DNA of 63,312 nt, counting the filler, from Candidatus Tectimicrobiota bacterium (GTDB lineage Bacteria; JACPSX01), in NCBI GenBank assembly GCA_016193065.1. It is 5 parts of 5 records of this genome, joined end to end, with 100 filler letters (N's around TTAATTAATTAA, not from the genome) between each part and the next. Parts side by side here need not be neighbours in the genome. Positions count along the whole stretch, not along the records: positions 31,697 to 59,784 come from JACPSX010000219.1; 4 more parts are not named here. One strand, 5' to 3'. Below the pieces are notes generated by a model, which was given only the letters and a program-made list of their open reading frames with translations, did no database searches and was not told the DNA's origin. How positions within the stretch are numbered: position 1 is the first letter of the stretch; each line of letters begins with the position of its first letter. Below are positions 31,697 to 59,784 of the stretch, one piece after another. The translations under genes were made by a program, and so were the position numbers.

Positions 31697-32629
31697 ATTG
31701 GCCCCCGTGGCCTGGACATAGATTTCCTGCCCCTCGTAGCTCAGAATCCAGTTCACGTAGAGCTTGGCGGCAAAGGGGTGCGCCGCCTTCTTTAGAATCT
31801 GGATGTTCCCCAAACCCACGGGCAGAGGCTCAACGGCAAAGAAGTCAACAGGTCCCCCCTGCTTGGCGACCCCGTAGACGTTGTACTCCGAAAGCGGTAT
31901 GGCAATCTTGAACTCCCCCGCAGCCAGCAACACGACCGCTGCATCAGCCCCCTCGGTGCGGAACTGGGCCTTATTCCTGGCAAAGCCCGCCATGAGCTTT
32001 GTGGTCCTCTCAGCACCCAGGCTGTTCCACAGGGGATTGAGCCAGACGCCGGCGGTAATACTGTTAAACGCTACCTGGCCGCTCCACTTGGGGTCCAGAA
32101 GGTCCTCCCAGGTCTTGGGCAGGTCCTTCTTGGAGACGAGGTTCGTGTTGTAACCCAGGCTGTAATAGCGCTTACGAAAAGCGATGGACGTAGTGCCGTA
32201 TTTCAGATCACCGGAATAGGTCCGCCAGGCGGGCAGATCGGTCAATTCGGCCAGTGCCTGGGCATCTAAATAGTTCTTCAGGGCTCCGCCGATTCCCGTG
32301 ACAATGTCTGCGATGGGTGCTCCCTGGCGGGCGGTAAAAAGAAGCTTCTGGTAGCGCACCTCGGTGGAGGCTAATGTGTAATCGACCTTCACGAACGGGT
32401 ATCTTTGGTTAAACGCCTTGAGAACCTCCGCGTGCTCCCGGACAGTATCCGTGGAGTACACGCTGACTTTCCCCTCTGCTCTAGCCTTCTCCAGCCAATC
32501 CTTGGGAACCGCCAGCTCGGCGTCAACTCCCTCCGCTCCCGCCGCGGCGACTGTCCTCTCCGCCGATGTCAGGAGCAATAAAGGAGCAATGACCGCCACC
32601 AGGATAGCTGCCATCTTGTTTGTCTTCAC
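31697..32629 (-). CDS. ABC substrate-binding protein (FbpA/PotD-like), 3' truncated; close paralogue of 43890-44990
   Basis: Signal peptide, ARAEGKVSVYS, YNTNLV...PKTWEDLLDPKW, AAHPFAAKLYVNW. Confidence 0.9.
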
Positions 32630-32728
32630 CGTGCTCCCTCCAATCCCTTTTTCTCCTCGCGGGCCAGGAGCGACGAGAGCCTCGCGTCTCTCTCTCCAAC
32701 CAGTGCCACCTGTCTCAGAGAACTGCCT

Positions 32729-34468
32729 TCAGCGTCGCCCTCCGACTTCCCGGAATCCCAGGCGACGCATCCCCATTGCCACCATGAAAAGGAACAGGAT
32801 CGTAAGGACGCCAATACCGGAGACCGCCCCCATCTGACCGTCGTCCCACATCATCCAGATAAACACGGAGAGCACCTGGTTCTCGGCCCCTTCGTAAAGC
32901 ATCAACGGCAGACCCGTCAGACGCACCGAAAGAAACATGGACCAGATCCCCAGGCCAACGAACGCGGGGATCAGGAGGGGGAAATGGATGCGTCGAAATG
33001 TCTCCAGCAGGGTCGCCCCGCTCAAGTACGCCGCCTCTTCCAGCTCCCGGTGAATTTGCAGCAGCGAGGCGGTCATCGCCCGTGTCCCGTAGGCCATAAA
33101 GCTCATCATGAAGCCCAGGGAGATCAGCCAGATCGTACCGTAGATGGGAACGTAGGGCTTCAGCATCAGAAAGATCCAGATTAGGGCCAAGGCCATGACG
33201 ATGCCGGGAATCGAGCGGGGCAGAAAGGCCAGCATGTCCATGAGCCTTCTCCCCCAAAACCGCGTGCGCACCAGGACCCAGGAGATCATGAAGGAGAGAA
33301 GGATCGTGCCGACGGCCGTGACGGCAACCATGAGAACCGTGTTTTTCAGCACCTTCCAGGTGGCCCCGTAAATGGCGATGGTGCGGTAATTGTCCAGGGA
33401 GACGAGGGAGAGGCTTTTCGCCGTCGGCAAGGTCGGAAAGGGGATCAGAGAGGTCCACAAGAGCACCAGCAAGGGCAAGACCAGGGTCAGGAGAAGGTAG
33501 AGCACAACGGCCCCAAAAGCCACATATTTCCAGCGCCCCAGGTCCAGCCGCTTGGGCTTATAGTCCCGGCCGCTCACCACGGCGAACTTCTCGGCCCGGC
33601 GGATCGCCTTGGAGTAGAGAACAACTCCGACGGCCGCCAGGAGCACGTAGGCGACGGAGAGGGCATTGGCCTGCCCGTAGTCGGGGGTCTCCAGACCCTG
33701 GGTTACGGCGTAGATCTTCGTGCTGAACACGTAGATCCGGGCCGGCAGGCCCAGGATCCCCGGAATCTCGAAGGTCTCCAACACCGTGATTGTCTCGTAG
33801 ATGAGAACCGCCACGATCCCCGAAGAGAGGACGCGCAGCGTGATCCGCCGCAGGCGGGAAAAGGGCCCCGCTCCGGAGACGGCGGCCGCTTCCTCCAGGG
33901 CCGGATCCATGTTCCGGAACAGGGGGACCATGAGCAGGAAGGAGGTCGGCACCACCCGCAGGGATTCCAGGATGATCATCCCCGGCAGGGTATAGGTGTT
34001 AAACGGCGCCGTGCCGAGACCGAAGAGACTCATCAGCCAGCGATTGATGTATCCCATGCGCGGGCTAAACAGCATGACCCAGGCAATGGCGTGCAAGACC
34101 CCGGGAATGGCCAGGGTCAGGGGGATGGCGGCAAAGGCGATCCCCCGACACGGGAGGTTGGTGCGCTCCACAAGCCAGGCCATCACTAGAGCCAAACTCA
34201 CCCCCAGAAGCACGCTCCCCGCCGTCAGAATCAGGGTGTTTCCCAAGATGACCATTGTGGATTTCCGCAGGTAGGCCCGGGCATAATTTTGCAGACCGGG
34301 GTTTTTAAACTCCCCGATGGCCGTGGAGTTGCTGAAGCTGCCCAGGATCAGGGTCAACAGGGGAACCAACGTAAAGGCAAGCAGAAACAGCAGGAGAAGC
34401 GTGGCCCCAGGATGGCGGATCCTCACACCGCGGAAACGACTCATACCCAAGGTACCGGCTAGCTCCAT
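32729..34468 (-). CDS. ABC permease, fused two-domain FbpB-like
   Basis: Two EAA loops (LEEAAAVSGA, LEEAAYLSGA), about 12 TM helices. Confidence 0.92.
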   Translation of the reverse strand: MELAGTLGMSRFRGVRIRHPGATLLLLFLLAFTLVPLLTLILGSFSNSTAIGEFKNPGLQNYARAYLRKSTMVILGNTLILTAGSVLLGVSLALVMAWLVERTNLPCRGIAFAAIPLTLAIPGVLHAIAWVMLFSPRMGYINRWLMSLFGLGTAPFNTYTLPGMIILESLRVVPTSFLLMVPLFRNMDPALEEAAAVSGAGPFSRLRRITLRVLSSGIVAVLIYETITVLETFEIPGILGLPARIYVFSTKIYAVTQGLETPDYGQANALSVAYVLLAAVGVVLYSKAIRRAEKFAVVSGRDYKPKRLDLGRWKYVAFGAVVLYLLLTLVLPLLVLLWTSLIPFPTLPTAKSLSLVSLDNYRTIAIYGATWKVLKNTVLMVAVTAVGTILLSFMISWVLVRTRFWGRRLMDMLAFLPRSIPGIVMALALIWIFLMLKPYVPIYGTIWLISLGFMMSFMAYGTRAMTASLLQIHRELEEAAYLSGATLLETFRRIHFPLLIPAFVGLGIWSMFLSVRLTGLPLMLYEGAENQVLSVFIWMMWDDGQMGAVSGIGVLTILFLFMVAMGMRRLGFREVGGRR

Positions 34469-34742
34469 GCCCTTCTCCTGGAGAAACAATCCGGATGCTG
34501 CAGAGTCACAGGCTCAATCGCCAGACAATTTCATTCGGAACTCTGTTGACCTTAAAGCTTGAGGTTTGGAGTTAGCGCTTCTATATCACACCGGCTCCAG
34601 GGAAACAACCTTCTTTTCCCAGCCGGCCGGGTGAACTCTTAAATGCCCGATCTTCCGACTCAGGGAACCCGTCAAAAATCCTGCCCAATCCCTGAAACCG
34701 CACAAAGTGCCCGGAGAAACGGCGGGATCCGCCCTGCGATGC

Positions 34743-34929
34743 TTACTCCAGCCTCTTTCTCTCTCCTTCCCCCAGCTTGGCCCCCGTCTTGTAGTGTTCT
34801 CCCCGAATCGCCAGATCCGCCTCCTCTTCGTGTCTTCTGGTCCAATAGCCCGGGGGTAGCCATGCCATGGCACCTTCGGGTCAACTTCTCCCACCGCTCC
34901 TCTTCCCAAACCTTCAGGGCTCGTTCCAT
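34743..34929 (-). pseudogene. Frameshifted C-terminal remnant, probably of a UbiD-family decarboxylase
   Basis: Three frames piece together MERALKVWEEE.../PKVPWHGYP/GYWTRRHEEEADLAIRGEHYKTGAKL; family assignment is from recall. Confidence 0.5.
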
Positions 34930-35033
34930 ACATCTTCGGTATCCCGTCTTTGATCTTCCCTTGGTCAGCAGGCATGGAACTGCAGTGCGAAGGAACCGGA
35001 CCCGCTAAGCTCTTGGACGACGGTAATCGCGTT

Positions 35034-36131
35034 TCACGCTTTCCTTGACAAAGAAGACAGTTCTCTATTGTAGAACACCCTGATCCTGTCCTTGGAAATC
35101 TGGAAATATGCCTTCCCGGGTGCAATGGGACTTCCCATCGCTTTCTTCAATATCCTCTTACTGGTTCGGGTCTGGACTTGATACAGGCTGTAGTCACCCA
35201 AAAAAGTAGTACTAACTATCTCTCCCTCGAACTCATTGGCATTGCCTGAGGGGGAAGCGCTTAGTTGAATGTCCTCGGGCCTGATTGCGATGACCACTTG
35301 AGAACCGACGCTGCTCGCCGAATCCGCATGTAGCGTTCCGATCTCGGTTTTTATGACTCCTGCCTCGGTAATTCTGCCCTCTAACCAGTTCACGGAGCCG
35401 AAGAACTCAGCCACAGTGACATTGACAGGCTGGTGATAGAGTTCCTGTGGATGCCCCACTTGCAGAATGACTCCATGATCCATCATGGCGGTTCGATCAG
35501 CCAAGGCCATGGCTTCTACCTGGTCGTGTGTCACATAGAGAACGGTGACGCCGATCTTTTTCACCAGCTCTCGTAACTCAGAACGGACATCCTCCCGTAA
35601 ACGGGCATCCAGGTTGCTGAGGGGTTCGTCCATGAGGAGGGCCTGGGGTTTAATCGCCAGGGCTCGAGCGAGGGCGACTCTTTGTTGCTGGCCCCCGCTC
35701 AGCAGTGGGGCAGGTCTTTTCTCCAGTCCTTCCAGTTGGACCAATTGGAGCGCTTCCCTGACCCTATCCTGAACCACTTGCTTGGAAAGTTTTCTTTTGG
35801 CTTGCGTCAAAGGTAATGCCACGTTTTCGAAAACCGTCAAGTGAGGCCAAATGGCGTAGGATTGAAACACCATGCCCAACTCTCTCTCCTGGGGCGGCAC
35901 GAAAATCCGCTCGCAGTCAGAGAATACCACCTTTCCTGCCAAGGAGATTTGGCCGGTATCGGGCTTTTCCAATCCTGCCAAGCAGCGCAGGAGGGTCGTT
36001 TTGCCTGATCCACTCCGCCCCAACAGGACGAATATCTCTCCTCTCTCCACCTGAAGATCAATGCCCTGGAGCGCCTGAACCGTTCCCTGCTTCGTGTGGA
36101 ATTTCATGGTGACGTTTCGAATGGCAATCAT
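35034..36131 (-). CDS. ABC ATP-binding protein (FbpC/PotA-like, TOBE domain)
   Basis: GRSGSGKTT, LSGGQQQR, LMDEP, VTHDQ; ATGA overlap with the permease stop. Confidence 0.94.
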   Translation of the reverse strand: MIAIRNVTMKFHTKQGTVQALQGIDLQVERGEIFVLLGRSGSGKTTLLRCLAGLEKPDTGQISLAGKVVFSDCERIFVPPQERELGMVFQSYAIWPHLTVFENVALPLTQAKRKLSKQVVQDRVREALQLVQLEGLEKRPAPLLSGGQQQRVALARALAIKPQALLMDEPLSNLDARLREDVRSELRELVKKIGVTVLYVTHDQVEAMALADRTAMMDHGVILQVGHPQELYHQPVNVTVAEFFGSVNWLEGRITEAGVIKTEIGTLHADSASSVGSQVVIAIRPEDIQLSASPSGNANEFEGEIVSTTFLGDYSLYQVQTRTSKRILKKAMGSPIAPGKAYFQISKDRIRVFYNRELSSLSRKA

Positions 36132-37864
36132 AGGGTCCGCTCCATGGCTGTAGCGCGTCTTCCCACATACCAATAGAGGAAGACGAGGGGGACCATGACG
36201 GCAACGACCAGCAAGGCCGCGGCGGCAGCTTTTGGATAAAGTCCCGACAGCCAGATTCCCCACATGGCGGCCGGGAGCGTGATATTACGCGTGGTAGCCA
36301 GAATTGACGCCACGGTAAGCTCCCGGTAAGTCAATAGGGCAACCCATAACCAAGTGTTCAGCAATGCCGGACCGAGCAGGGGCAACAAAATCTTCCGCAG
36401 AATCCGTAATAGCGGGATGCCGCTGACCGCTGCCGCTTCCTCGAGTTCCTTGTGAATTTGAATCAGAGCGCTGTTTAGATTCCGCGTTGCAAAGCTGAGC
36501 CACACCAAGGTATAGACCGCCATGAGGAGATAGATTGTACCGTAAATGGGAAGGAACCCACTGAGAAGAAAGATGGACACATAGGCTGCGCTTACAGCGA
36601 AAATAATATGGGGAACGGCATGGGGAAGGAAAGAGAAGACGTCAAAGAAAAACCTGCTCCGAAATCCTGAACGAACCACCACCCAGGAAAGTCCTAGACT
36701 GAATAGCAGCGTTAACGTGGGCACTGAAACGGCCAAGATGAACGTATTTTGCGCCCCGATCAACAGTTGGTGGATCGGGAGCGCCCTGAAGTTATTCAGG
36801 GAGACATGACCCAGGGCGCTCAGAGAGGGTACCTGCGGATAGGGAAGTAGGGCATTCCAAACGAGCATGGATAGTGGCAACAGCTGGCCCAGAAGGAAAT
36901 AACCTCCGAGAAAGGCCCAAGCCCAAGGCTTCCAACGGCCCAACTCCACCTGCCTCGGCCGGTACGACTGGCCGGTGACCACGGCATAGCGGTGGCTCGA
37001 CTTCAGCGCGCGGTAGTACCAACAAAGGAAGAGAAGGGAGATGCAAATCATCAACACGGCGGAGGCGCCGGCCAGGTCGTGCCTCGGCAAACCGTCCAGC
37101 GGCTGGACCTGAATGTAAAGAAAGGTGCTGAAGGTGAACACGCGATTCGACAGGCCGATCACAGCCGGGATATCGAAGGCGGCGACACCGATCATAAAGA
37201 TATAAATTGCCGCCGCTAATACTCCGGGATAGGCGAGTGGCAGGGTCACTTTGTGGAGGGTCTGGAAAAACCTAAGGCCATGGACCTCAGCGGCCTCCTC
37301 GAAGACAGGGTTCATCGCTCGAAACGTCGGCGACACCATGATGAAGGCCACGTTTGCCAGGCCAAGACCCTGGATGATCCCCATTCCCGGCGCTGTGGCC
37401 ACGTTGATACGGGCCCACTCCATCCCCGGGATCCCGGTAATGAGCGTATTGATGATACCGATCCGGGGGTTAAGCAGGAAAACCCAGCCCATGCCGGTGA
37501 GAAAGCTGGGAATCAGCAGACCCAAAACCATAAGGGTCTGGGGAATTTCTTTGGGGCGCAGGTCAGTTCTCTCCACAAGCCAGGCAGCCGGGATACCAAA
37601 TAATAAGGCCACCGCCACCGTTATCAGAGAAAAGACGGCGGTGTTCAGCAACGCCTTGTACGTGAAGGGGTCCAAGTACAGCTCCCGATAGGCATCGAGA
37701 CTGTAACCGGCGGCAGCGCCCGCCAACTGCCGGAAACTTATCCAGACAATTACACTGACCAGGACAGTCAACGCAGCAACGGGAATCAGTGAAATGCCGA
37801 CCAAAACCGTACGGCGATCAAGCAGCGGGCCGATCACCAGTCTACGAAGAACCGCTCTCCGCAT
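36128..37864 (-). CDS. ABC permease, fused two-domain FbpB-like
   Basis: FEEAAEVHG and LEEAAAVSG loops, multiple TM helices. Confidence 0.92.
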   Translation of the reverse strand: MRRAVLRRLVIGPLLDRRTVLVGISLIPVAALTVLVSVIVWISFRQLAGAAAGYSLDAYRELYLDPFTYKALLNTAVFSLITVAVALLFGIPAAWLVERTDLRPKEIPQTLMVLGLLIPSFLTGMGWVFLLNPRIGIINTLITGIPGMEWARINVATAPGMGIIQGLGLANVAFIMVSPTFRAMNPVFEEAAEVHGLRFFQTLHKVTLPLAYPGVLAAAIYIFMIGVAAFDIPAVIGLSNRVFTFSTFLYIQVQPLDGLPRHDLAGASAVLMICISLLFLCWYYRALKSSHRYAVVTGQSYRPRQVELGRWKPWAWAFLGGYFLLGQLLPLSMLVWNALLPYPQVPSLSALGHVSLNNFRALPIHQLLIGAQNTFILAVSVPTLTLLFSLGLSWVVVRSGFRSRFFFDVFSFLPHAVPHIIFAVSAAYVSIFLLSGFLPIYGTIYLLMAVYTLVWLSFATRNLNSALIQIHKELEEAAAVSGIPLLRILRKILLPLLGPALLNTWLWVALLTYRELTVASILATTRNITLPAAMWGIWLSGLYPKAAAAALLVVAVMVPLVFLYWYVGRRATAMERTL

Positions 37865-37953: not shown

Positions 37954-39042
37954 CTAACGACCGGCCAGAACTTTCGCAAACTCGGTAGCGGCCTTGCTGA
38001 GGATGGCTCCTTCTTCCCCCCTCCAGGAAGCGGCCGTGAATCTCAATGTTTTCATACTCTTCGCCTCCGCTTCCTTGTATTGCTTATGGGCTGGAGTCCC
38101 TTCCACCGAGGCCGAGGACCAACCCACCACCCGGGAAAGGATGTCTTGGCCTTCCTTGCTCATGAGAAAGCCGACCAAGAGAGTGGCCAGGTTCGGATGT
38201 GCCGAGTGCGCGGGAACTACAAAATAGAAGGAGTCAATCAACGAGGGATCCTCCTCCCATACCGTGCCCACAGGTCCGCCGGTCTGTCGAGCATAGGCAT
38301 CTCCGCCATAGTTCCCGCAGTTCTTAACCAGCATCAGAAACTCTCCGCTGGCGATCCGGGACTCTTCCCCGCACCGGATCAAACCACCGATCTGGCGGCT
38401 CAGGGCCTGGACAAATTCCAAGGCTTTGTCGTAACCCCACGCCCGGTTGGAGGCCAAGAAATAGAGTCCCGATGCATAGGGAGTGGAAGCGATCTTCCCC
38501 TTCCATTTCGGGTTCAGGACATCTTGAAGCCGGCGCGGCGCTTCCGCCGTCTTAATCTCGCGGGTGTTGTAAGTAATCCCGTGGAATACGTCCACAAACC
38601 GGATTAACTGTCCTTCGGCCTCTACGGTATCCCCCGGAACGTGGGGAAAAACCTCCCGCCAGGGATAAGGTCTCGTCACTCCTTTCCCCAAAACCATGTT
38701 GACGGGGCGCGCGTTGGCCACAAGAATATCCGTGTCCGACTTCACACCCGCCTGGCGCGTCTCTATGACACGGCCTGTCATAACGGGCATTGCAGGCCCG
38801 GCGGCGTAACGGATCCTTATATTGAGACCGTATTTCTTGTTGAGCGCGTCCTGGATGATCCTGACACCCTCTGCCTCTCCCCAAGTTCCGCCCCCTGCCA
38901 CCAGATTGAGCTCGCCCTCAGCCTGCGCCGCTTTGATCAGCTCATTAAGCCTCTGCGCAGGCCCCTGCTGAGCATATCCGATTGGAACCGACACGATCAT
39001 CACGGCAAACACGCAGCCCAACCACATCATCCTCTTGCGCAT
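37954..39042 (-). CDS. ABC substrate-binding protein (FbpA/PotD-like)
   Basis: Signal peptide, AAQAEGEL, YNTREI...LNPKWKGKI, SAHPNLATL. Confidence 0.88.
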   Translation of the reverse strand: MRKRMMWLGCVFAVMIVSVPIGYAQQGPAQRLNELIKAAQAEGELNLVAGGGTWGEAEGVRIIQDALNKKYGLNIRIRYAAGPAMPVMTGRVIETRQAGVKSDTDILVANARPVNMVLGKGVTRPYPWREVFPHVPGDTVEAEGQLIRFVDVFHGITYNTREIKTAEAPRRLQDVLNPKWKGKIASTPYASGLYFLASNRAWGYDKALEFVQALSRQIGGLIRCGEESRIASGEFLMLVKNCGNYGGDAYARQTGGPVGTVWEEDPSLIDSFYFVVPAHSAHPNLATLLVGFLMSKEGQDILSRVVGWSSASVEGTPAHKQYKEAEAKSMKTLRFTAASWRGEEGAILSKAATEFAKVLAGR

Positions 39043-39088: not shown

Positions 39089-40093
39089 TCAGACTTCTCC
39101 GCGCAGCAAACCACTCTCCTTGTAGTACGATTCGGCTCCCGGGTGGAGGGGAACCGGCATAGTTTTCCATACCTCTTCGGGTCGAATTGGATAATGAAGG
39201 GGGCTCTCCATGACCGGCATGTGCCGGTATTTGACCTCGAAATCATCCCGGTCTTCGATGAGAACCTGAGCCATCAGACGGGCCACCCGGTCCGGCATGT
39301 CGCCGCGGACCAAGACGATCCATTGGCTCCAATCCACGGTGGTCACCGCGCGATCAAGCCCGAAAAATTCCCCGGCCTCAATGGTCTCCGCTTGATATCC
39401 ATAGTCTTTGTTTAAACTCTGCAATTGCGGCTCGTCGATGGAAAGAAAGCGCATCGGCCGCCGATCCGTAAATCGGTGCCAGGTCATGATAGCCTCATAA
39501 AAGATGGCATCGGCCTCCCCGGAGACCAGGAGTTTGGGGGCTTTGGGGGGGCGTTCAAATTCGATCCATTTCCCTCCCCACTTCGGGATGTCGCCCCATT
39601 CGATGCCGTAGGCATTCAGGATGCGCTCGGCGACAAATCCGATGTGATTAATCCCGTCGTTCAGTCCCGTCACGATCCTGAGGGGGGGCTTCTTCTCGCG
39701 CAGGTCGTGAAACGAGCGGATCCCATAGCGCTGAGCCACATCCTCGGCGATGGCCAGAACCATGCGGTCCCTGTGAGGCAGGGCCGCGATTGCCCGCAGA
39801 TCAGGATAGGCGCGTTCGAACATTCCCCTGCCTTCCAAGGCCTGCGCCGCCGTGACGATCGGTGTCGTGACCGCCATATCCACAAGCCCCTCCGCGACCG
39901 AAAGGACATTATCCTTGTATCCTCGGCCCGTGTGAATTACAAAGGTTGAAGTCTTGGCCGTCCTCCATCGCATGCCCGTAGCGATCCAACCACAGAGGCT
40001 CGTCAAGTTCGTTATGCCCCAATCCCCCATAAGGCGCAGATGAACTTCTAAATCGCTTTTTCCCCATTCGGCTTCCACATCCATGATGTCCAT
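39089..40093 (-). CDS. TAXI-family (TRAP) solute-binding-fold protein with no visible signal peptide
   Basis: LRAIAALP, IRSFHDL and C-terminal PVPLHPGAESYYKE TAXI signature; start at 40084-40108. Confidence 0.75.
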   Translation of the reverse strand: MDIMDVEAEWGKSDLEVHLRLMGDWGITNLTSLCGWIATGMRWRTAKTSTFVIHTGRGYKDNVLSVAEGLVDMAVTTPIVTAAQALEGRGMFERAYPDLRAIAALPHRDRMVLAIAEDVAQRYGIRSFHDLREKKPPLRIVTGLNDGINHIGFVAERILNAYGIEWGDIPKWGGKWIEFERPPKAPKLLVSGEADAIFYEAIMTWHRFTDRRPMRFLSIDEPQLQSLNKDYGYQAETIEAGEFFGLDRAVTTVDWSQWIVLVRGDMPDRVARLMAQVLIEDRDDFEVKYRHMPVMESPLHYPIRPEEVWKTMPVPLHPGAESYYKESGLLRGEV

Positions 40094-46538: not shown

Positions 46539-46539
46539 A

Positions 46540-51883: not shown

Positions 51884-51941
51884 GTGACACTCCTTCGCGG
51901 ATGCTCTTATCCGCGCTGTAGACAAGCAGAAGAGAACCGCC

Positions 51942-53012
51942 TCACTGCGCCCGCAAGATCCTCGTCATTTCTTTCGCCAGATCCTCGGAGGCCTTCGTGC
52001 CCATGAACTCCAGGGCTCCCGGCCACTGCGACCAGTTGAAAATCTTGAGACCCGATTTTTGGGCTTCCTGGCTCAGTTTATGCTCGTAGGAATCCGGGTA
52101 AAAGGCGTTCCCGTTGCCGATCTCGTTCTCCCAGATCCGGTGAGCCTCCGGCCCGGACATGTAGGCGATCAGGAGCCTGGCCGCGTTCGGGTGTCTCGCC
52201 CCTTTGCGGACTCCCAGTTGATGAATCGTCACGTAGGCGAAATCCAGACTCTTGAAGCGGGCCGGAATCCCTTTCTTCACGGCCTGAGAGTAGAATGCTG
52301 AAGTAATCAGGATCATGGGATACTCTCCCACCGTAAACCGCCGATACTCGTTGGGGTAAGTGTCCACCACGGCGCCATTGTTCATCATGGCTTTCAAGTC
52401 GGTCAGGATGCGGGCATTGTCATAGATGCGCGAGTAGGCGCTGTAGAGGTCGGTGTAGGGGAAAATGACGAACTTCCCCTTCCACTTGGGCTTCCCCAGA
52501 TCGCTCAAGGAGACTGGAGCGTCCTGAGGGGAAATCACTTGAGGGTTATAGAGCAGTCCCACGTGTCCCGTGTAAATTGCCACACTTTCCCCGCCAAATT
52601 GCACGACCTGCGGCGGCGTTCCTTCCGGTAGCAGGGGCCCCCAATCCACCTTTTCCAGGACTCCCGCCCGGACGGCGTCAAACATGTTGCTGTCGGAAGA
52701 GACGTGGAGATCGTAGGAAGGGGTCACTTTGGCCCGGAACTCGGAAATCGCCTGGGCGGTCAACTGGGGATAACTACGGGCCGGAGTATAGTTAATCTTC
52801 AAACTGACCCCGTACTTCGCAGCAATTGCCTTCTCAACCTTACTGACCCCTTCGGGAGTAAGGCTGGAGGGGAGAACGACATCCACCGCCCCCTCTTTTT
52901 TTGCCCCTTCAATCACCCGTGTCAGCGCATCACTGGCAGCCCGTGCCCCCGGCGCAGACACCAGAGCCCCAAGAGACATCAACAGCACCGCCAGCACAAT
53001 CCCTCTTTTCAT
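51942..53012 (-). CDS. ABC substrate-binding protein; close paralogue of 58068-59147
   Basis: Signal peptide, GAKKEG, LLYNP...PKWKGK, ARHPNAARL. Confidence 0.88.
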   Translation of the reverse strand: MKRGIVLAVLLMSLGALVSAPGARAASDALTRVIEGAKKEGAVDVVLPSSLTPEGVSKVEKAIAAKYGVSLKINYTPARSYPQLTAQAISEFRAKVTPSYDLHVSSDSNMFDAVRAGVLEKVDWGPLLPEGTPPQVVQFGGESVAIYTGHVGLLYNPQVISPQDAPVSLSDLGKPKWKGKFVIFPYTDLYSAYSRIYDNARILTDLKAMMNNGAVVDTYPNEYRRFTVGEYPMILITSAFYSQAVKKGIPARFKSLDFAYVTIHQLGVRKGARHPNAARLLIAYMSGPEAHRIWENEIGNGNAFYPDSYEHKLSQEAQKSGLKIFNWSQWPGALEFMGTKASEDLAKEMTRILRAQ

Positions 53013-53054
53013 CCTTGCATCCTCCACAGCGTGGAAAGAACCTGAACCGCGAGG

Positions 53055-54143
53055 TTACAAACCTTTCATCGTCACCTCAATCCAGACCTTCTCCAGCGGG
53101 CTGTTGCGGGTCAGGAGCTTTTCCACCATGTCCATGGTCCGCACGATGACTTTACCGCTCTTGATCTTCTCCCGGATCTTCTCCGGGTAGGCGATCAGTT
53201 CTCCCCTCAACTCGGGGTGAGCCGGGGCGATTGCGGTCGCCTTCGAATAGGCCCTCTGCCCCTCCTTGGAAAGAAGCCAGTTCAAGAACACCTTTGCCGC
53301 GTTGGGGTGCGGGGTCGAGCGCAGGATGACGATCATGTCAGCGGCGGCCAGCAACGGATCGAGAGCCACCCAGCTCACCGGCACCCCCTTCTGTTCATTC
53401 TTGAAAGTTTCCTTCTCCATGGCGGGGATCACGAACTTAAGCTCCCCCGCCGCCGTGAGCTTGAGGGCGGCATTCGTCCCTTCGGAGCGGAACTGGGCGT
53501 TGGCCGAGAAGAGCTTCCTCATGTAATCGGTCGTTTTCTCGGCCCCCCAGGCCGTCCACAACTGGGGGAAGATAACCGCGTTGGCCGTGCGGGTGACCCC
53601 GATGACCCCCTTCCACTTGGGGTCGAGCAGATCCTCCCAGGTTTTCGGAAGATCCCGCTCGCTGACCAAATCCCGGTTATAGGCCACACTCCAGTATTTG
53701 ATGACAAACCCGATAAAGTGATCTTGCTTCAAATCCGCCGGATATCGCTTCCATATGGGAAGGTCGCGCAAATCCATGAGGACGCCGGCCTTGATGTAGT
53801 CTTCAAGGTTTCCGAGACTGGAGATCAGGTCGGTAATGGCTTCCCCTCGTTTGGCGGCAAAAAGCACCTTATCCCTGCGCACCTCTGTGGAGGCCTCCAG
53901 ATACTCGACCTTGACGAACGGATATCTCCGGTTGAAGACCCGCACCACCTCGCGAATCTCCAGGGGCCGATCGCTGCCGTAAAAAACGACCTTCCTCTCC
54001 TTCTTGGCGCCCTGGACCCAGGATTCCGGCACGGCAAATTCCGCCTCGTCCGCCGAGGTCTGCGCCTTGACAACCCCGCACGCGAGAACTGCCAGAAACG
54101 CCGCGGCCACCGCCAGCGCACCCCCATTCCGCTTCCACTTCAT
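53055..54143 (-). CDS. ABC substrate-binding protein (FbpA/PotD-like)
   Basis: Signal peptide, YNRDLV...PKTWEDLLDPKWKG, PHPNAAKVFLNWLLSKEGQ. Confidence 0.9.
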   Translation of the reverse strand: MKWKRNGGALAVAAAFLAVLACGVVKAQTSADEAEFAVPESWVQGAKKERKVVFYGSDRPLEIREVVRVFNRRYPFVKVEYLEASTEVRRDKVLFAAKRGEAITDLISSLGNLEDYIKAGVLMDLRDLPIWKRYPADLKQDHFIGFVIKYWSVAYNRDLVSERDLPKTWEDLLDPKWKGVIGVTRTANAVIFPQLWTAWGAEKTTDYMRKLFSANAQFRSEGTNAALKLTAAGELKFVIPAMEKETFKNEQKGVPVSWVALDPLLAAADMIVILRSTPHPNAAKVFLNWLLSKEGQRAYSKATAIAPAHPELRGELIAYPEKIREKIKSGKVIVRTMDMVEKLLTRNSPLEKVWIEVTMKGL

Positions 54144-54203
54144 GGCACCCTCCAGAGCGCCCCTACGAGTCAACGTTTGTAGGAGAGCCTCAACCACTGC
54201 GCT

Positions 54204-55226
54204 TCACATGTCCAGCAAGGGCTGAACTTCATCGTGAAACCGCTCCAGTTGCTGCACCGGATTCAAGGAAGCAAACATGATCACGATGCGATTCAAGGCG
54301 GGAACGGTTCTTTTGAACGAGAGCCAGTTGTTGACCACCTCGGCCACTTTCTGCGCAGGACCGTAGCAGCCGCTCCGCCTCAAGTCCTCAAAGGAGGGGT
54401 TCGCCTGCACCTGATAGAATCCCTTGCGCAGTCTGGTGTTATAGAAGCGCTCCGCCTCGTGCACGGCTTTCTCCCCGTCCCCGTCGATATTGAACTGTCC
54501 GAAACTGCTCAGCGTCAGGTCAAAATTCTCGTCCTCCAGGGTGCGCCCCTCTTTTCCGGCCACCTCCTTGAGAAGTTCCATCCCCTCCCGGCATACGTTC
54601 AGATCAGGCCGTCCTCCGGGGATCCAGCCCGTGGCAAATCGGGCGGTCCGCCGGATGCCCGGATGGTTCCACCCTCCTTTGCGCGCGGCTCCCGGAGCGC
54701 CCCGCTGGATGTTGCTGTGGAGACCGCCCATGAGGATCCCGGGATAGGGTTTCTGGACGGGCTTCGGATCCACGATGATCTCTTTCAGGCGATAATACTT
54801 GCCCTCGTACGTGACCTCGTCTTCGGTCCACAGCCGGGTCAAGATGTCCAAAGCCTCCTCCATCCGGGCTCCCCTCTCCTGAAACGGAATCCCCATCCCG
54901 GCGAACTCAGCGGGGATAAATCCGATCCCGACTCCGAGGATAAACCGGCCGCCGGAGAGGTGATCCAGGGTCACCACGCGCCGGGCCAGATCCACCGGCT
55001 GGTAGAGGGGAACCTGCAGCACGTCCGTTCCCAGCTTGATCCTGCTCGTCCTGCCCGCCACCGCAGCCAGCGTGTCCAGCGCGTCAAAACCATCCACGTC
55101 CCTGGCGATGAAGTGCGGCAACCAGAAAGATTCGTAGCCGAATTTCTCCACTTGCTCGGCAAATTGCAGGCGCACGGAGACCGGAATCGTAGACCCGATA
55201 GGCATCGCAAATCCCAGTTGCACCAT
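54204..55226 (-). CDS. LLM-class oxidoreductase; paralogue of 50837 and 59247
   Basis: GYESFWLPH, TLDHLSGGRFILGVGIG, PKPVQKP. Confidence 0.92.
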   Translation of the reverse strand: MVQLGFAMPIGSTIPVSVRLQFAEQVEKFGYESFWLPHFIARDVDGFDALDTLAAVAGRTSRIKLGTDVLQVPLYQPVDLARRVVTLDHLSGGRFILGVGIGFIPAEFAGMGIPFQERGARMEEALDILTRLWTEDEVTYEGKYYRLKEIIVDPKPVQKPYPGILMGGLHSNIQRGAPGAARKGGWNHPGIRRTARFATGWIPGGRPDLNVCREGMELLKEVAGKEGRTLEDENFDLTLSSFGQFNIDGDGEKAVHEAERFYNTRLRKGFYQVQANPSFEDLRRSGCYGPAQKVAEVVNNWLSFKRTVPALNRIVIMFASLNPVQQLERFHDEVQPLLDM

Positions 55227-55247: not shown

Positions 55248-56360
55248 TTATTTGCGGGTTAACAAGCGGCCGATTTCTCCCTCCCAGGCTTCCGCTTCCG
55301 GAGTGGACATGTAGCGCACGCGCTCCGGGGTCCACAACCAGGGGCGGACTCCCTCCCACTCCGGCCCCAGTTCAAATAGGGATTGACCTCTATAGTGCAG
55401 ATTCGGGGCACTGGCGACCTCTTGCCAGATCTTCAAAGCTTCGGGTCCGGCCAGAAAGGCAGCCAGCAGCTTCGCCGCATTGGGATGGCGAGCACCGGTT
55501 CGAACCGCGACATTGTGCTGGTTCATAAGAGCAACATCCATCGGCCTAAAGCCCGCGGACAATCCCTTGGCCTTCAACTGATGCGCAAAGGTTTCGCTGA
55601 TCAGGGCCACTATGGGATATTCCCCCAGGGTGAAACGGTTGATGGCAGTGGGCCATTCGGCCACCACGGCACCGTTCTTCATGATCCCCTCCACCACCGA
55701 AAGACTCGTTTGGCGCCCGAGGGGAATCACCAGTGGCATCCATACCAGGGGATAGGGAGGCACGAGAACCTTCCCACGCCACTTCGGATTCGTAAGATCC
55801 CTGAGACTTGCAGGCGCCTCCTGGGGAGACACCACCTTGGGGTTATACAGGAGACCGAGGTACGTTGTGTTGACGACCAGGCCGGACCCGCCAAAAACCA
55901 CGACTTCCCGTGGCGTCTTTGAGACGAGATAGGGTCCCCAGTCCACGCGCTCGACGGCCCCTGCCTCGGCCAGAGCGAAGAGGCGGAAGTCCTCTAAAGT
56001 GATGAGATCGTGGCTCGGTGGGGTCCCGGCCTTGTGCTCCGTCAAGGCTTGCGCCTGGATTCTCGGATAGCTTCGGGTCGGAGTGTAATTGATTTTCAGG
56101 TCAACGCCGTACTTTTTGCGGATTCCCTCCTGAATCGCCGCTACCCCTTGTGGAGTGAGTGAGGATTGCAGCGCCACGTCCACAACTCCTTCCCGCTTGG
56201 CTCCTTCCACGATGCGGGCCAACGGGTCTGCGGCCGGCGCTCCCCCCGGGGAGGCCGCCGCCGCCCCCTGGGGATACAACCAGGCCCCAGCCCACAAGAT
56301 TCCCAAAAACCCCAGCATCCGCGCACAAACCCGCCATCCGGTTCTGAATCCGCAGTGCAT
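55248..56360 (-). CDS. ABC substrate-binding protein; close paralogue of 56655-57791
   Basis: Signal-like N-terminus, GAKREG, LLYNP...NPKWRGK, ARHPNAAKL; start uncertain. Confidence 0.86.
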   Translation of the reverse strand: MHCGFRTGWRVCARMLGFLGILWAGAWLYPQGAAAASPGGAPAADPLARIVEGAKREGVVDVALQSSLTPQGVAAIQEGIRKKYGVDLKINYTPTRSYPRIQAQALTEHKAGTPPSHDLITLEDFRLFALAEAGAVERVDWGPYLVSKTPREVVVFGGSGLVVNTTYLGLLYNPKVVSPQEAPASLRDLTNPKWRGKVLVPPYPLVWMPLVIPLGRQTSLSVVEGIMKNGAVVAEWPTAINRFTLGEYPIVALISETFAHQLKAKGLSAGFRPMDVALMNQHNVAVRTGARHPNAAKLLAAFLAGPEALKIWQEVASAPNLHYRGQSLFELGPEWEGVRPWLWTPERVRYMSTPEAEAWEGEIGRLLTRK

Positions 56361-56546
56361 AATTTCACTCCCGTTGTCCCGCTGGTGAAAACAATATCTC
56401 TCCCTTAGCCACATTGCCGCCCGGGCTAGAGGCAAGCAGAGGATACGTGCCCCGCTCTCACTGGAAAACATGAAGTATTGATATTCGATCTTCTAACATT
56501 GCCCGGAATTGCTGTCAAGGGATATTCGAGGCAATGGGCAGAGCGT

Positions 56547-56642
56547 TCAGAGTCAGCACTCAGCTATCAGCCTGAGACCCGGGGGAGAATCAGGAAATTC
56601 TGCCCTCCAGAGCTGACAGCTGATCGCTGAAAGCTGAGAGCT
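56547..56642. repeat. Inverted pair of heptamer arrays (TCAGCnn x4 / nGCTGAn x4-5)
   Basis: TCAG at 56547, 56553, 56560, 56567; GCTGA at 56612, 56619, 56626, 56633 (period 7). Confidence 0.85.
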
Positions 56643-56654: not shown

Positions 56655-57791
56655 CTACTTGCGGATCAACAAGCGACCGATTTCTTGCTCCCAGGCTTGC
56701 GCTTCCGGGGTGGACATGAAGCGCAGGCGCTCCGGAGTCCAGAACCAGGGCCGTACTCCATTCCACTCCGGCCCCAGGTCAAAGAGGGATTGGCCTCGAT
56801 AATAAAAGTTGGGGTTGCTGCCAATCTCCTGCCAGATCTTCAAGGCATCGGGGCCAGCCAGGAAAGCAGCCAGCAGCCTTGCCGCATTGGGATGACGCGC
56901 ATTTCTCCTCACCGCGACGATGCGCAGGCCCAGGTTGGCGGTATCCAACGGCCTGAACCCCACGGCCATGCCCCGCGCCTTGACCTGACCGGCATAGATT
57001 TCGCTGATCAGAGCCACCAGGGGATACTCTCCCAAGGTAAAGCGGGTAATCGCAGTGGGCCATTCGCTCACCACGGCCCCGTTCTTCATAATCGCCTCCA
57101 CCCCCGAGAGGCTCGCCTGCCGACCCATAGGAATCGCCAGGGTCATCCACGTCGAGGTGTAAGGGGGAATCAGGATCTTTCCTCGCCACTTGGGATTGGC
57201 CAGATCTTTCAAGCTTGCCGGAGCTTCCTCGGGACGGATCACCTTGGAGTTGTACAGGAGACCCACAAACGCCGTGTTCACCACAAGACCCGAGCCCTCA
57301 TAGACCACGCTCTCCGGAGGAGTCCCGGGAGGAAGCAAGGGTCCCCAGTCCACGCGCTCGACGGCCCCAGCTTCGGCCAAATCAAATATATGAGTTTCCG
57401 CACCGGTGATAAGATCGAAGCTTGGAGGGACCCCAGCCTTGTGCTCCGTGAGAGCTTGCGCCTGGATTCTCGGAAAACTCCTGGTGGGGGAATTATTGAT
57501 TTTCAGATCGACACCGTATTTTTTCCGGACGGCTTCTTGAACCGCCGCTACTCCCCGGGGGGTGAGTGAGGATTGCAGCGTTGCATCCACAACTCCTTCT
57601 CGTTTGGCCCCCTCAATGACACGGGTGAGTGAGTCTGCAGATGAGGTCCCTCCCGGCGAAGCGGCCGCAACTCTGTCTGTCTTCTGTGCCGCCACCGCCG
57701 CCGGATGCAGCAAAACGCCGGCGCACAAAATCCATACGGCCACGAGGAACAGCGTACATGCCAGGCACCCGGCACTGATTCGACGGACCAT
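56655..57791 (-). CDS. ABC substrate-binding protein
   Basis: Signal-like N-terminus, GAKREG, NPKWRGK, ARHPNAARL. Confidence 0.87.
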   Translation of the reverse strand: MVRRISAGCLACTLFLVAVWILCAGVLLHPAAVAAQKTDRVAAASPGGTSSADSLTRVIEGAKREGVVDATLQSSLTPRGVAAVQEAVRKKYGVDLKINNSPTRSFPRIQAQALTEHKAGVPPSFDLITGAETHIFDLAEAGAVERVDWGPLLPPGTPPESVVYEGSGLVVNTAFVGLLYNSKVIRPEEAPASLKDLANPKWRGKILIPPYTSTWMTLAIPMGRQASLSGVEAIMKNGAVVSEWPTAITRFTLGEYPLVALISEIYAGQVKARGMAVGFRPLDTANLGLRIVAVRRNARHPNAARLLAAFLAGPDALKIWQEIGSNPNFYYRGQSLFDLGPEWNGVRPWFWTPERLRFMSTPEAQAWEQEIGRLLIRK

Positions 57792-57869
57792 GATTTCCTC
57801 CTCCCTTTTTTCCTTACTCGATCCCACGGCCTTCCGAGGAGATCCGAGATGGGGAAAGCAGTGGACATC

Positions 57870-57990
57870 CTACATGCAAGGGAGAACCGTCTTCTCCAGC
57901 CGATCCACCTGGGTTTTGATGTCGAAAGTGTGGAAGTAGAGAACGATTCTTTCGGCACCGTAACCCCAGAAGCAATGCAGTTTCCATTCT
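57870..57990 (-). pseudogene. C-terminal remnant of an LLM oxidoreductase
   Basis: FWGYGAERIVLYFHTFDIKTQVDRLEKTVLPCM-stop aligns with LWALGPERIVFYIHSVDTATQLKRIEKEILPKI of 42749. Confidence 0.72.
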
Positions 57991-58067
57991 CGCTCACTCT
58001 TGCTCAGGCGACAGTGCCAGAAGGATTCGAATCCTCTCCTCCCGCTCTCTCAGGGAGAGGAGGCACT

Positions 58068-59147
58068 TCACTGTCCCTGCAAGATTCTGGACACTTCTTT
58101 TCTCAGGTCGTCCGCCGCCTTGGTACCCTGGAATTCGAAGGCGCCCGGCCAATGGGACCAGCTGAACGTCTTGAGGCCTGCTTTCTGGGCCTCCTGAGCC
58201 AATTTATGGTCGTAGGAATCCGAATAGAAAGAGTTCCCGTTGCCAATCTCGTTCTCCCAGATCCGGTGAGCTTCCGGCCCGGACATGTAGGCGATCAGCA
58301 GCTTGGCCGCATTGGGATGCCTGGCTCCTTTGCGGACTCCGAGTTGATGAATCGTCGCGTAGGCAAAATCCAGACTCTTGAAGCGGACCGGAATCCCCTT
58401 TTTCACAGCCTGCTCATAGAACGCCGAAGTGATCAGGATCAGGGGATACTCTCCCACTGTAAACCGGCGGAACGCGGAGGGGTAAGTATCCACCACGGCT
58501 CCATTGTTCATCAGAGCCTTCAAGTCGGACAGAATTCGGGCCTTGTCGTAGACGAGCGAGTAGGCGGTGTAGAGGTCCGTGTAAGGAAAAATGACGAACT
58601 TGCCCTTCCATTTCGGCTTTCCCAGATCGCTCAGTGAATTTGGCACGTCCTGAGGAGAGACCACCCGGGGGTTATAGAGCAGTCCCACATGCCCCGTGTA
58701 AATGGCCACGCTTTGCCCACTAAACTGCACGACCTCCGCAGGTGTTCCTTCCGGCAGCAGGGAGGCCCAATCAACTTTCTCCAGGATTCCCTCCCGGACG
58801 GCACCATATATGGTGCTGTCCGAGGAGACATGGATATCGTAGGAAGGAGTCACCCTGGCCCGGAACTCGGAAATCGCCTGAGCGGTCAACTGGGGGTAAT
58901 TGCTGGTCGGAGCATAATTAATTTTCAAATTGACCCCGTACCTTGCAGCGATCCCCTTTTCCACCTTATTGGCTCCTTCGGGAGTAAGGCTCGCGGGGAG
59001 AACAGCATCCACCACCCCCTCTTTTTTTGCCCCCTCAAGCACTCTGGTCAGCGCCTCACTGGCAGCCCAAGACCCAGTCGTAAGCACCAGAACCCAGAGG
59101 CTCGTCACGAGCCCGCCGGCCACAACACTCCACTGCTCTCTCCTCAT
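58068..59147 (-). CDS. ABC substrate-binding protein
   Basis: Signal peptide, GAKKEG, PKWKGK, ARHPNAAKL. Confidence 0.88.
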   Translation of the reverse strand: MRREQWSVVAGGLVTSLWVLVLTTGSWAASEALTRVLEGAKKEGVVDAVLPASLTPEGANKVEKGIAARYGVNLKINYAPTSNYPQLTAQAISEFRARVTPSYDIHVSSDSTIYGAVREGILEKVDWASLLPEGTPAEVVQFSGQSVAIYTGHVGLLYNPRVVSPQDVPNSLSDLGKPKWKGKFVIFPYTDLYTAYSLVYDKARILSDLKALMNNGAVVDTYPSAFRRFTVGEYPLILITSAFYEQAVKKGIPVRFKSLDFAYATIHQLGVRKGARHPNAAKLLIAYMSGPEAHRIWENEIGNGNSFYSDSYDHKLAQEAQKAGLKTFSWSHWPGAFEFQGTKAADDLRKEVSRILQGQ

Positions 59148-59246
59148 CTGAGCATCCTCCCTAACATGAAAAGAATTTTTGATCTCATGAGTTCCTCCCC
59201 CTTCTACGGGCCGCTGCTTAGGAAGGAACTTTGCCCTGCAATAGCT

Positions 59247-59784
59247 TCACAAGCCCAGCAAAGGCCGAACTTCATTGTGAAACCGCTCCAGTTGCTGCAC
59301 GGGGTCCAGGGAAGCAAACATGATGATGATTCGCTTTAGCGCCGGCACCACCTTCTTGAACCCGATCCAGCGATTGATAACCTCCGCTACCTCCTCCGCA
59401 GGGCCGTAACAGCCGCTCGCCTTCTGGGATTCGAAAGATGGATTCCCCTGGAGCTGATAGAAGCCCTTGCGGACCCTCGTGTTGTAGAAGCGCTGGGCTT
59501 CGCTGAGCGCCTTGTTGCGGTCGCCATCAATGTTGAACTGGCCGTAGCTGGTCTGCGTCAGATCAAACTCCTCATCTTTCAGGGAACGCCCCTCTTTGCG
59601 GGCTGCTTCCTTAAGAAGTTCCATCCCTTCCCGGCAGACCTCCAGGTCAGGCCTTCCTCCGGGTATCCAACCCGTGGCGAACCGGACCGTCCGCCGGATC
59701 CCCCGCTGGTTCCATCCTCCCTTGCGGTCGCTTCCCGGAGCGCCCTGCTGGATGTTCGTATAGAGACCCCCCATCAGAATCCCG
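59247..59784 (-). CDS. LLM-class oxidoreductase, 3' part (contig end)
   Basis: Colinear with the C-terminal half of 54204-55226 (RFATGWIPGGRPDL...QLERFH). Confidence 0.9.

Follow-up and report, generated by a model that had tools for sequence, protein, structure and literature searches.

What might a bacterium gain from interleaving, on one strand of a 28-kb locus, many solute-binding proteins (SBPs) and few translocators of the ATP-binding cassette (ABC) type with a series of luciferase-like monooxygenase-family oxidoreductases (LLMs)? This question is raised by positions 31697–59784 of the window, the whole stretch of 63,312 nucleotides (nt) analyzed here, taken from the Candidatus Tectimicrobiota bacterium assembly GCA_016193065.1. 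On balance, we lean slightly toward reading the locus as a lineage-specific, paralog-expanded island for catabolic uptake coupled to F420-linked redox and decarboxylase chemistry. Under this reading, eight periplasmic SBPs of the FbpA/MctA fold would capture related small organic anions and pass them to three ABC importers with fused permeases, energized by two ATPases; having reached the cytoplasm, the imported solutes would meet LLMs that most likely use coenzyme F420, itself made and re-reduced by the products of genes lying on another contig beside a paralogous module, and imported acids would also meet a PhdA-type UbiD decarboxylase dependent on prenylated flavin mononucleotide (prFMN). 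The unit that multiplied would be an SBP gene directly before an LLM gene, and the array would have grown by the birth and death of such units, as gene remnants and a repeat resembling a miniature inverted-repeat transposable element (MITE) seem to indicate.

The array corresponds to exactly one whole contig (JACPSX010000219.1, hereafter C162; 28,088 bp) of a 2.9-Mb metagenome-assembled genome (MAG) in 294 contigs, 86% complete with 0.95% contamination (G000; C-numbers designate contigs and L-numbers metagenome or genome loci). This genome and a congeneric sister genome (G001) are the sole members of their phylum in a set of about 200,000 species representatives. Because the window is made of five separate contigs joined by N spacers, the window genes flanking 31697–59784 are not linked to the array, and the two open ends reported in the preliminary description are those of C162: genes are indeed cut on both sides (SBP1 loses its C-terminus and LLM6 its N-terminus), but the ends are merely contig ends.

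When 27 open reading frames (ORFs) of the array were scanned against Pfam and NCBIfam, the minus strand was found to carry eight SBPs (SBP_bac_1/6/8/11), three permeases of about 580 amino acids (aa) with two BPD_transp_1 domains apiece, two ABC ATPases with TOBE domains, five full LLM genes plus a C-terminal LLM piece (59247–59784), and one gene each of the UbiD, GlmL/MutL and TAXI/NMT1_3 families. The numbers of SBPs, LLMs, permeases, ATPases and remnants, confirmed by Pfam/NCBIfam, by our own hidden Markov model (HMM) and by tblastn, agree with the preliminary description, and so do its picture of many receptors beside few translocators and its placement of all genes on the minus strand, the 10 largest plus-strand ORFs having no Pfam match at E ≤ 0.01. 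All eight SBPs begin with a hydrophobic signal-like segment in their translations. Regulator or flavin-reductase domains were found in none of the 27 ORFs, Rfam gave no match on the contig at E ≤ 0.1, and predicted promoters and terminators did not exceed those of shuffled sequence (3 vs. 5.5 and 15 vs. 19.2, respectively). In the direction of transcription, the array reads LLM6, SBP8, an LLM remnant, SBP7, SBP6, LLM5, SBP5, SBP4, LLM4, PERM3, LLM3, ATP2, an SBP remnant, the MITE-like repeat, UbiD, SBP3, LLM2, GlmL, LLM1, the TAXI-like gene, SBP2, PERM2, ATP1, a UbiD remnant, PERM1 and SBP1; by increasing coordinates, its features are the following.

31697–32629, minus strand: SBP1, subfamily A, C-terminus cut (Pfam SBP_bac_8/1/6/11; 77% identity to SBP3)
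32729–34489, minus strand: PERM1, fused two-domain ABC permease (two BPD_transp_1 stretches; top NCBIfam match PhnU2 at 159 bits, far under its cut-off of 593)
34749–34929, minus strand: C-terminal remnant of a UbiD paralog (tblastn with a sister-genome UbiD, broken frames)
35034–36263, minus strand: ATP1, ABC ATPase (ABC_tran 120.8 bits, TOBE_2)
36128–37864, minus strand: PERM2, fused ABC permease (two BPD_transp_1; 34–41% identity to PERM1/PERM3)
37954–39042, minus strand: SBP2, subfamily C (SBP_bac_6/8; about 25% identity to the other SBPs; its orthologue in the sister genome comes after a clade X LLM)
39089–40108, minus strand: TAXI/NMT1_3-like protein (NMT1_3 73.5 bits)
40146–41135, minus strand: LLM1, clade X (Bac_luciferase 168.6 bits; 91% identity to LLM2)
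41272–42747, minus strand: GlmL/MutL-family ASKHA-type protein (PF13941 456 bits)
42749–43732, minus strand: LLM2, clade X (Bac_luciferase 173.3 bits)
43890–44990, minus strand: SBP3, subfamily A (Pfam; directly downstream of UbiD)
45018–46416, minus strand: UbiD decarboxylase, PhdA-like (UbiD and UbiD_C domains)
46392–46545, no strand assigned: MITE-like interspersed repeat of about 150 nt (blastn copies, terminal inverted repeats)
46561–46779, minus strand: C-terminal SBP remnant (tblastn to a sister-genome SBP)
46793–47899, minus strand: ATP2, ABC ATPase (ABC_tran 119.1 bits, TOBE_2)
48011–49045, minus strand: LLM3, clade X (TIGR03619 168.2 bits)
49073–50824, minus strand: PERM3, fused ABC permease (Pfam, two BPD_transp_1)
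50837–51925, minus strand: LLM4, clade Y (TIGR03619 169.9 bits)
51942–53027, minus strand: SBP4, subfamily B (Pfam; directly upstream of LLM4)
53055–54197, minus strand: SBP5, subfamily A (Pfam; 41–45% identity to SBP1/SBP3)
54204–55226, minus strand: LLM5, clade Y (TIGR03619 163.0 bits; model pLDDT 87.5)
55248–56471, minus strand: SBP6, subfamily B (Pfam; directly upstream of LLM5)
56655–57827, minus strand: SBP7, subfamily B (Pfam; 68% identity to SBP6)
57873–58049, minus strand: C-terminal LLM remnant (own LLM HMM, E 4.5e-8)
58068–59147, minus strand: SBP8, subfamily B (Pfam; 78% identity to SBP4)
59247–59784, minus strand: LLM6, clade Y, N-terminus cut (Pfam 24 bits for this fragment; 75% identity to LLM5 over 178 aa)

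Is the neighborhood of SBP and LLM genes more than an accident of this contig? Family SBPs and TIGR03619-like LLMs account for 15 and 20 hits in this genome and for 31 and 18 in its sister. Seven of the 15 SBPs of this genome immediately adjoin an LLM (on contigs C162, C37 and C48), for a chance expectation of about 1% LLM neighbors per SBP, as roughly estimated from some 20 LLMs among about 2,800 genes; in the sister genome, SBP–LLM, LLM–TAXI and UbiD–permease neighbors recur on many short contigs. In a tree of 31 LLMs (fragments shorter than 230 aa left out), 11 of the 20 LLMs of clades X and Y are SBP-adjacent, as against 0 of the 11 outside; this group of 20 has an SH-aLRT support of 90, with 99 for clade X (8 rows), 82 for clade Y together with a long branch (12 rows), and 97 for the 11-row core of the latter. 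On the side of the receptors, subfamily B (13 of the 43 rows of the SBP tree, support 100) pairs with LLM clade Y, and four SBP subclades map one-to-one onto four LLM-Y subclades. Within the array, group A comprises SBP1 and SBP3 and, at 41–45% from both, SBP5; group B comprises the pairs SBP4/SBP8 and SBP6/SBP7, with 41–45% identity between pairs; and SBP2 stands alone in group C. Likewise, LLM3 is 38–39% identical to the two other members of clade X, while in clade Y LLM4 and LLM5 share 57% identity and LLM6 is closest to LLM5; duplicated segments within the contig show 72–82% DNA identity.

The same unit was met in environmental DNA. A metagenome scan with the LLM-Y alignment returned 35 loci, and an SBP adjoins the LLM in 14 of the 19 whose LLMs are 51–85% identical, 14 different record prefixes being represented among these 19. 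Several of these loci repeat the order seen here, either as SBP-LLM-SBP-SBP-LLM-PERM-LLM or as LLM-PERM-LLM-ATPase-UbiD, the latter being kept by L090; the five without an adjacent SBP are two 1.3-kb contigs, two loci carrying another ABC gene, and L090 itself. Across SBP-then-LLM pairs of both genomes, orthologous pairs included, a Mantel test gave r = 0.72 (p = 0.0004, n = 9). The SBP-then-LLM unit has likely, though not provably, been duplicated as a whole, as matching subclades suggest.

Part of the evidence nevertheless weighs against the proposed island. The Mantel signal is inflated by orthologues, with r = 0.79 (p = 0.07, n = 5) in this genome alone and r = 0.14 (n = 4) in its sister alone, so that the co-diversification envisaged at the outset stands for the subclades and the duplicated units and becomes statistically weak once orthologues are set aside; for LLM-then-SBP pairs, r is 0.2 (n = 4). 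No SBP lies beside the LLM in any of the 16 loci with 29–48% LLM identity, and in a scan with four subfamily-B sequences, none of the 24 loci of other lineages (SBPs at 20–35% identity) has an adjacent LLM, two of them having only a weak, opposite-strand LLM match 1.7–2.7 kb away. These outside loci, labeled Deltaproteobacteria, Burkholderiales, Binatia and others, carry tandem SBPs, and in 2 of the 24 the SBPs have UbiD nearby, along with hydantoinase A/B, amidohydrolase_2, CoA ligase, acyl-CoA dehydrogenase and NMT1/TAXI genes. Not having been met at the loci outside the lineage, the SBP–LLM pairing appears young and narrow, and since the outside loci show only SBP–UbiD company, the SBP–LLM cassette would be lineage-specific whereas the catabolic linkage of SBPs with UbiD reaches further. 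The conservation of SBP–LLM adjacency on which the preliminary description depended thus extends to the sister genome and the metagenome loci, and was not found beyond the lineage.

These same results could be understood if SBPs and LLMs had become neighbors through tandem segmental duplication only, the LLMs acting on endogenous metabolites and the SBP ligands being unrelated to them. Rapid birth and death of genes (LLM1/LLM2 at 91% identity, three remnants, the MITE-like repeat), the lack of pairing outside the lineage and the weakness of the co-diversification statistics without orthologues would all fit. We however consider this account unlikely, because the SBP-then-LLM unit is kept in most metagenome loci down to 51% LLM identity, recurs with short gaps on C162, C37 and C48, and is confined to two LLM clades, the 11 other LLMs being devoid of it.

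The traces left by this turnover are of several kinds. The LLM remnant (57873–58049) covers positions 291–326 of the LLM HMM, that is its last 36 positions, and its DNA shares 83% identity, over 101 nt, with the 3′ terminus of an LLM gene of contig C48. The SBP remnant (46561–46779) matches residues 290–355 of a sister-genome SBP in tblastn (56% identity over 73 aa, E 2e-19). Between ATP1 and PERM1, a gap of 545 bp contains, in broken frames, roughly the final 60 codons of another UbiD paralog (34749–34929; identities of 72% for 36 aa and 62% for 24 aa with the sister-genome UbiD as tblastn query), and this paralog is intact in the sister genome, where it precedes the PERM1 orthologue. As for the MITE-like repeat, it has terminal inverted repeats and internal hairpins with no Rfam match, and yields 81 blastn high-scoring segment pairs, spread over 53 contigs of the genome; 18 of these pairs span at least 95 nt (near full length). 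At this repeat, contig depth rises to about 31,000 in the groundwater runs. Together, the remnants and the repeat depict a region with rapid gene gain and loss. An ORF at 34586–35125 had been considered as the SBP remnant of the preliminary description and was rejected, for it has no SBP similarity and no Pfam match and overlies the UbiD remnant. The spacer between SBP7 and SBP6 (56536–56640) holds another short interspersed repeat, with matches on contigs C118, C166 and C72 (77–86% identity over 69–104 nt).

What, then, do the receptors bind? As the preliminary description stated of automated pipelines, public sources name the relatives of these SBPs Fe3+ transport proteins, and one alternative to a catabolic island is that the SBPs serve the acquisition of metal as a chelate (e.g., metal–citrate), the LLM genes being unrelated passengers. 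Several comparisons are in keeping with it. The SBP profile matches the ferric binder HitA of the HitA/FbpA type at E 1.3e-25 and, second-best, the metal-citrate-binding ABC protein MctA at E 3.7e-24, the values being 4e-15 for a pyridoxal-phosphate binder and about 1e-6 for aminoethylphosphonate and polyamine binders. The AlphaFold2 model of SBP4 (pLDDT 95.1) has MctA as its best fold match (PDB 7f6e and mutants; TM 0.75, at only 17–18% identity), with TM 0.64–0.70 for ferric binders (FbpA/HitA/FutA chains; Foldseek) and 0.66–0.70 for glucose-6-phosphate, agropinic acid and polyamine binders. The array also shares with FbpABC, HitABC and SfuABC a common SBP fold and the combination of one fused two-domain permease with one TOBE-type ATPase, and a metal-chelate role, which would count against the island, is made possible by the fact that the best structural neighbor binds a metal–citrate complex.

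The residues expected to hold iron tell another story. Tandem tyrosines ligate Fe3+ in VmFbpA (Tyr195/Tyr196) and in TtFbpA (PMC10804667). In the eight SBPs, the HitA Tyr-Tyr pair aligns to AF, AF, ET, EI, EY, EY, EK and GN, and a Tyr-Tyr pair occurs in 0 of the 39 family SBPs of both genomes in which the motif could be located (it could not be placed in 4 of 43). N-lobe His and Glu are Fe ligands in ferric binders of the Haemophilus influenzae and Neisseria class, and the histidine of the HitA Gly-Gln-His motif aligns to Thr in the SBP profile, according to a single profile alignment. Judged by the tyrosine positions, the eight SBPs are not canonical ferric-binding proteins, contrary to their automated iron(III) labels and as the preliminary description had supposed. 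Besides, 15 and 31 SBP hits in genomes of less than 3 Mb would go beyond what metal supply is known to require, duplication of the SBPs went along with that of LLM genes, and distant SBP relatives keep catabolic rather than metal-uptake company (UbiD, hydantoinase A/B, CoA ligase, etc.), which together make metal acquisition, in our view, quite improbable. The array further departs from FbpABC-type systems in having eight receptors instead of one, interleaved with oxidoreductases. The fold shared with MctA is one that binds organic anions, and we know of no pairing of MctA with LLM genes; the residues at the Tyr-Tyr positions differ between SBP subfamilies, as would be the case had the pockets diverged.

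The next question is which cofactor the LLMs would use. For all five full-length LLMs, TIGR03619 (the Rv2161c family) is the top NCBIfam family, with 159–170 bits, followed by TIGR03560 and TIGR03621. F420 families score about 80 bits higher, for every LLM, than the best family using FMN, SfnG (79–86 bits), and the SsuD family TIGR03565 reaches 55–59 bits for a cut-off of 518. Relative to the TIGR03619 cut-off of 166.9, LLM3 (168.2) and LLM4 (169.9) lie above, while LLM1 (159.1), LLM2 (162.6) and LLM5 (163.0) fall just under, a departure from that family which tells against an F420-linked island. The F420 label of TIGR03619 stems from phylogenetic profiling and not from biochemistry, and we know of no member of the family whose substrate has been established.

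The genomic context of a paralogous module adds to this assignment. Contig C37 carries on one strand (C37:7819-20867; loci L054 and L055) cofH (491 bits for a cut-off of 374), cofG (461.6 for 213), a gene for an NADPH-dependent F420 reductase (npdG/Fno, 204 for 150), cofE, cofD and an FrhB/FpoF-like gene, followed by genes for a TAXI-like protein, an LLM, an SBP, an ATPase and a fused permease. The sister genome shows the same order of F420 genes followed by the module, as does metagenome locus L091, which may belong to the same population as the sister genome. From this gene complement, we conclude that the organism makes coenzyme F420, as would suit LLMs of the Rv2161c family. The search for cof/fbi genes proposed in the preliminary description was therefore rewarded with F420 genes and an NADPH:F420 reductase, on C37 rather than on the array contig; their absence from C162 is a matter of contig boundary, since they were found on C37 beside the paralogous module. 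cofD of C37 is split into two frames in this assembly.

A second alternative takes the LLMs as FMNH2/O2 monooxygenases and the island as a means to scavenge sulfur or nitrogen, or to oxidize xenobiotics, in the manner of ssu, msu or sfn. Facts that disfavor the F420-linked island speak for it: among PDB sequence matches of the LLMs, RslO1, which is FMN-type, leads with 80 bits, ahead of a myxobacterial luciferase (74) and the F420-type Mer (63), and each genome has two Flavin_Reduct genes, by which an FMN route would be possible. As a whole, PDB searches by sequence and by fold (LLM5 model, both kinds of enzyme at TM 0.68–0.78) do not separate the two cofactor classes. In addition, SfnG, SsuD and NtaA types figure among the weaker NCBIfam matches (E 1e-13 to 1e-24), and a TAXI/NMT1-fold protein comes after LLM1, the NMT1 fold being that of SsuA-type receptors. 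Yet the profile scores of every LLM point the other way, no SsuE-type FMN_red gene (PF03358) was found in either of the two genomes, the Flavin_Reduct genes lie on contigs without LLMs, three sources show the F420 genes and a paralogous module co-linear with each other, and none of the eight SBPs belongs to the NMT1 class. We accordingly rate the FMN alternative as a rather unlikely one and regard F420 as quite probably the LLM cofactor, as far as family profiles and gene order can tell. The lack of flavin reductase and ubiX stressed in the preliminary description thus holds for the contig but not beyond it, with Flavin_Reduct genes on other contigs and ubiX in the sister genome.

With regard to the chemistry that could follow uptake, the UbiD gene of the array (PF01977 175.5 bits; PF20696 87.3 bits) is the most informative. 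In the PDB, 7pda stands far ahead of all other matches to it (E 1.7e-92, 314 bits, over 347 residues), the next one, about 200 bits lower, reaching 118 bits; the N-terminal third, where a deletion lies, is outside this match. 7PDA is PhdA, the prFMN-dependent phenazine-1-carboxylic acid decarboxylase of Mycobacterium fortuitum (PMC10850782). The array UbiD differs from PhdA in its neighbors, which are an ABC importer and LLMs. UbiD-family matches number 18 in this genome and 45 in the 2.7-Mb sister genome, an extreme expansion, and the UbiD–SBP order of the sister genome is the same as that of UbiD and SBP3. ubiX was not found in this genome, which is 86% complete and in which CoaBC was likewise undetected, and is present in the sister genome (234 bits for a cut-off of 108.9) among UbiD genes; the check suggested in the preliminary description thus failed here and succeeded there. 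On contig C68 (L057:7399-10652), two genes of the Pup-ligase family (PafA/Dop type) adjoin a UbiD-permease-SBP-ATPase module, which places pupylation genes in a deep-branching, non-actinobacterial lineage.

In the present assembly, UbiD reads in two frames and its N-terminal domain is interrupted by a gap, since the contig misses 157 nt at 46134|46135 relative to L090, a metagenome contig 82–85% identical. An independent-assembler contig of run X1, which may be the source sample, has 157 extra letters exactly at this point, and contigs of runs X2 and X3, from the same study, break there with unmatched extra letters, none joining both sides without them. Since independent contigs carry the missing letters, UbiD would be intact in the population and its frameshift an assembly deletion; the possibility that UbiD is a pseudogene was rejected on the same grounds. 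This proven error, together with the fragmentation of the MAG into 294 contigs with several split genes, raises the suspicion that the array as a whole might be an artefact, through a chimeric, collapsed or misbinned contig. Such an origin seems very improbable: the distance of 12.36 kb between the SBP1 and SBP3 copies is found again on a 14.1-kb contig built by an independent assembler, metagenome loci and the sister genome share long stretches of order with the array, paralogous modules exist on other contigs of the bin, and the GC content of the array (0.53–0.62) is like that of the rest of the window. Array DNA is contained in four groundwater metagenome runs, all from one study; no RNA run figures among those listed as holding it.

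To return to the catabolic uptake island, each SBP ligand would be the substrate, or a precursor of the substrate, of the adjacent LLM. From the PhdA likeness of UbiD and the catabolic company of the distant SBP relatives, we would guess that these ligands are (hetero)aromatic carboxylates; the (hetero)aromatic or N-heterocyclic ligands imagined in the preliminary description agree with a UbiD closest to the decarboxylase of an N-heterocyclic aromatic acid. A bolder version, which we put forward tentatively and hold to be doubtful, is that each cassette joins a receptor and an F420 oxidoreductase matched to one (hetero)aromatic carboxylate scaffold, new specificities arising by pair duplication while translocators are shared, and that, with 18–45 UbiDs, this would form the core metabolic strategy of a phylum-level groundwater/soil lineage. 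Two genes have no role in the proposed scheme and tell against its completeness, namely those for the GlmL-family and TAXI-like proteins.

How far is this organization a new one? The preliminary description knew of no characterized pathway with this layout, a statement to be qualified, since the joining of SBP, ABC importer and LLM has a precedent in the sulfonate and sulfone utilization systems ssuEADCB, msu and sfn. In these, as in the array, one locus encodes a periplasmic receptor, its ABC importer and an enzyme of the luciferase-like type; the LLMs of those systems are FMNH2- and O2-dependent and require a flavin reductase. The array differs from them in that its LLMs match F420 families in genomes where no FMN_red gene was found, that its SBPs are of another class (SBP_bac_1/6/8/11, not NMT1), and that the receptor–enzyme pair is multiplied. 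That several receptors may share one importer is already known. Another parallel is offered by the SAR202 Chloroflexota, whose small genomes hold many flavin/LLM monooxygenase paralogs, read as widening the range of organic substrates (PMC5395668). Compared with these, the enzymes of the array are paired with receptors, probably F420-linked, and accompanied by UbiD enzymes, in a groundwater lineage. Each part of the array comes from a known family, and the novelty would lie in a multiplied cassette of a receptor and a probably F420-using enzyme linked to an extreme UbiD expansion; we found no earlier description of such a system in the literature searched, which is no proof of absence. The matter is of some consequence for the reading of metabolism in uncultured groundwater bacteria, in which the iron(III) importer annotation would here be wrong. 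If receptor and enzyme share a ligand, binding screens of the receptors would moreover reveal substrates of orphan Rv2161c-type F420 LLMs, and a phylum-level lineage so heavy in receptors, LLMs and UbiDs points to an unusual life on aromatic or heterocyclic acids.

The two genes left aside by this scheme have contrasting distributions. The TAXI-like protein scores 80.3 bits with TIGR02122 (cut-off 84.35) and belongs to a widespread TAXI/NMT1_3 subfamily of about 328 aa, with relatives in a Chloroflexota MAG (70% identity), Actinomycetota, a cyanobacterium, Eremiobacterota and a fungus; no match at E ≤ 1e-30 was obtained when 399 other genomes were searched. As only 37 nt separate the LLM1 stop from the start of its ORF, a signal peptide could not be accommodated, and a TRAP membrane gene was not found on C162, to which the search was confined. 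A TAXI-like gene comes after an LLM in the three of three cases with a visible upstream gene in the two genomes, and again in L091; a complex prediction of LLM1 with the TAXI-like protein scored 0.00, which is uninformative either way. The GlmL-family gene, which stands between LLM1 and LLM2, exceeds the cut-off of TIGR01319 (340 for 204), lies just under that of NF040745 (468 for 475) and yields nothing in a PDB sequence search at E ≤ 0.001. Neither the sister genome nor the related loci were found to contain it, and it looks like a recent arrival; no glutamate mutase gene is present on the contig, the extent of the search for one.

The closest match to the GyrB of this genome is a protein of one other MAG, at 91% identity; matches then fall to about 61–62% and include Nitrospirota, Nitrospinota, Tectimicrobiota and Desulfuromonas proteins. 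Elsewhere in the window, on contig C159, ClpB (1155–3513) and Lon (6737–9099) are each split in two overlapping or adjacent ORFs in different frames, which may be further assembly indels of this MAG. The same contig carries at 9190–22185 genes typical of a replication origin (bactofilin, parB, parA, rsmG, jag, yidC, rnpA, dnaA, dnaN, recF and gyrB), unrelated and unlinked to the array, gyrB being followed at 22230–23030 by a gyrA gene that is cut by the end of C159.

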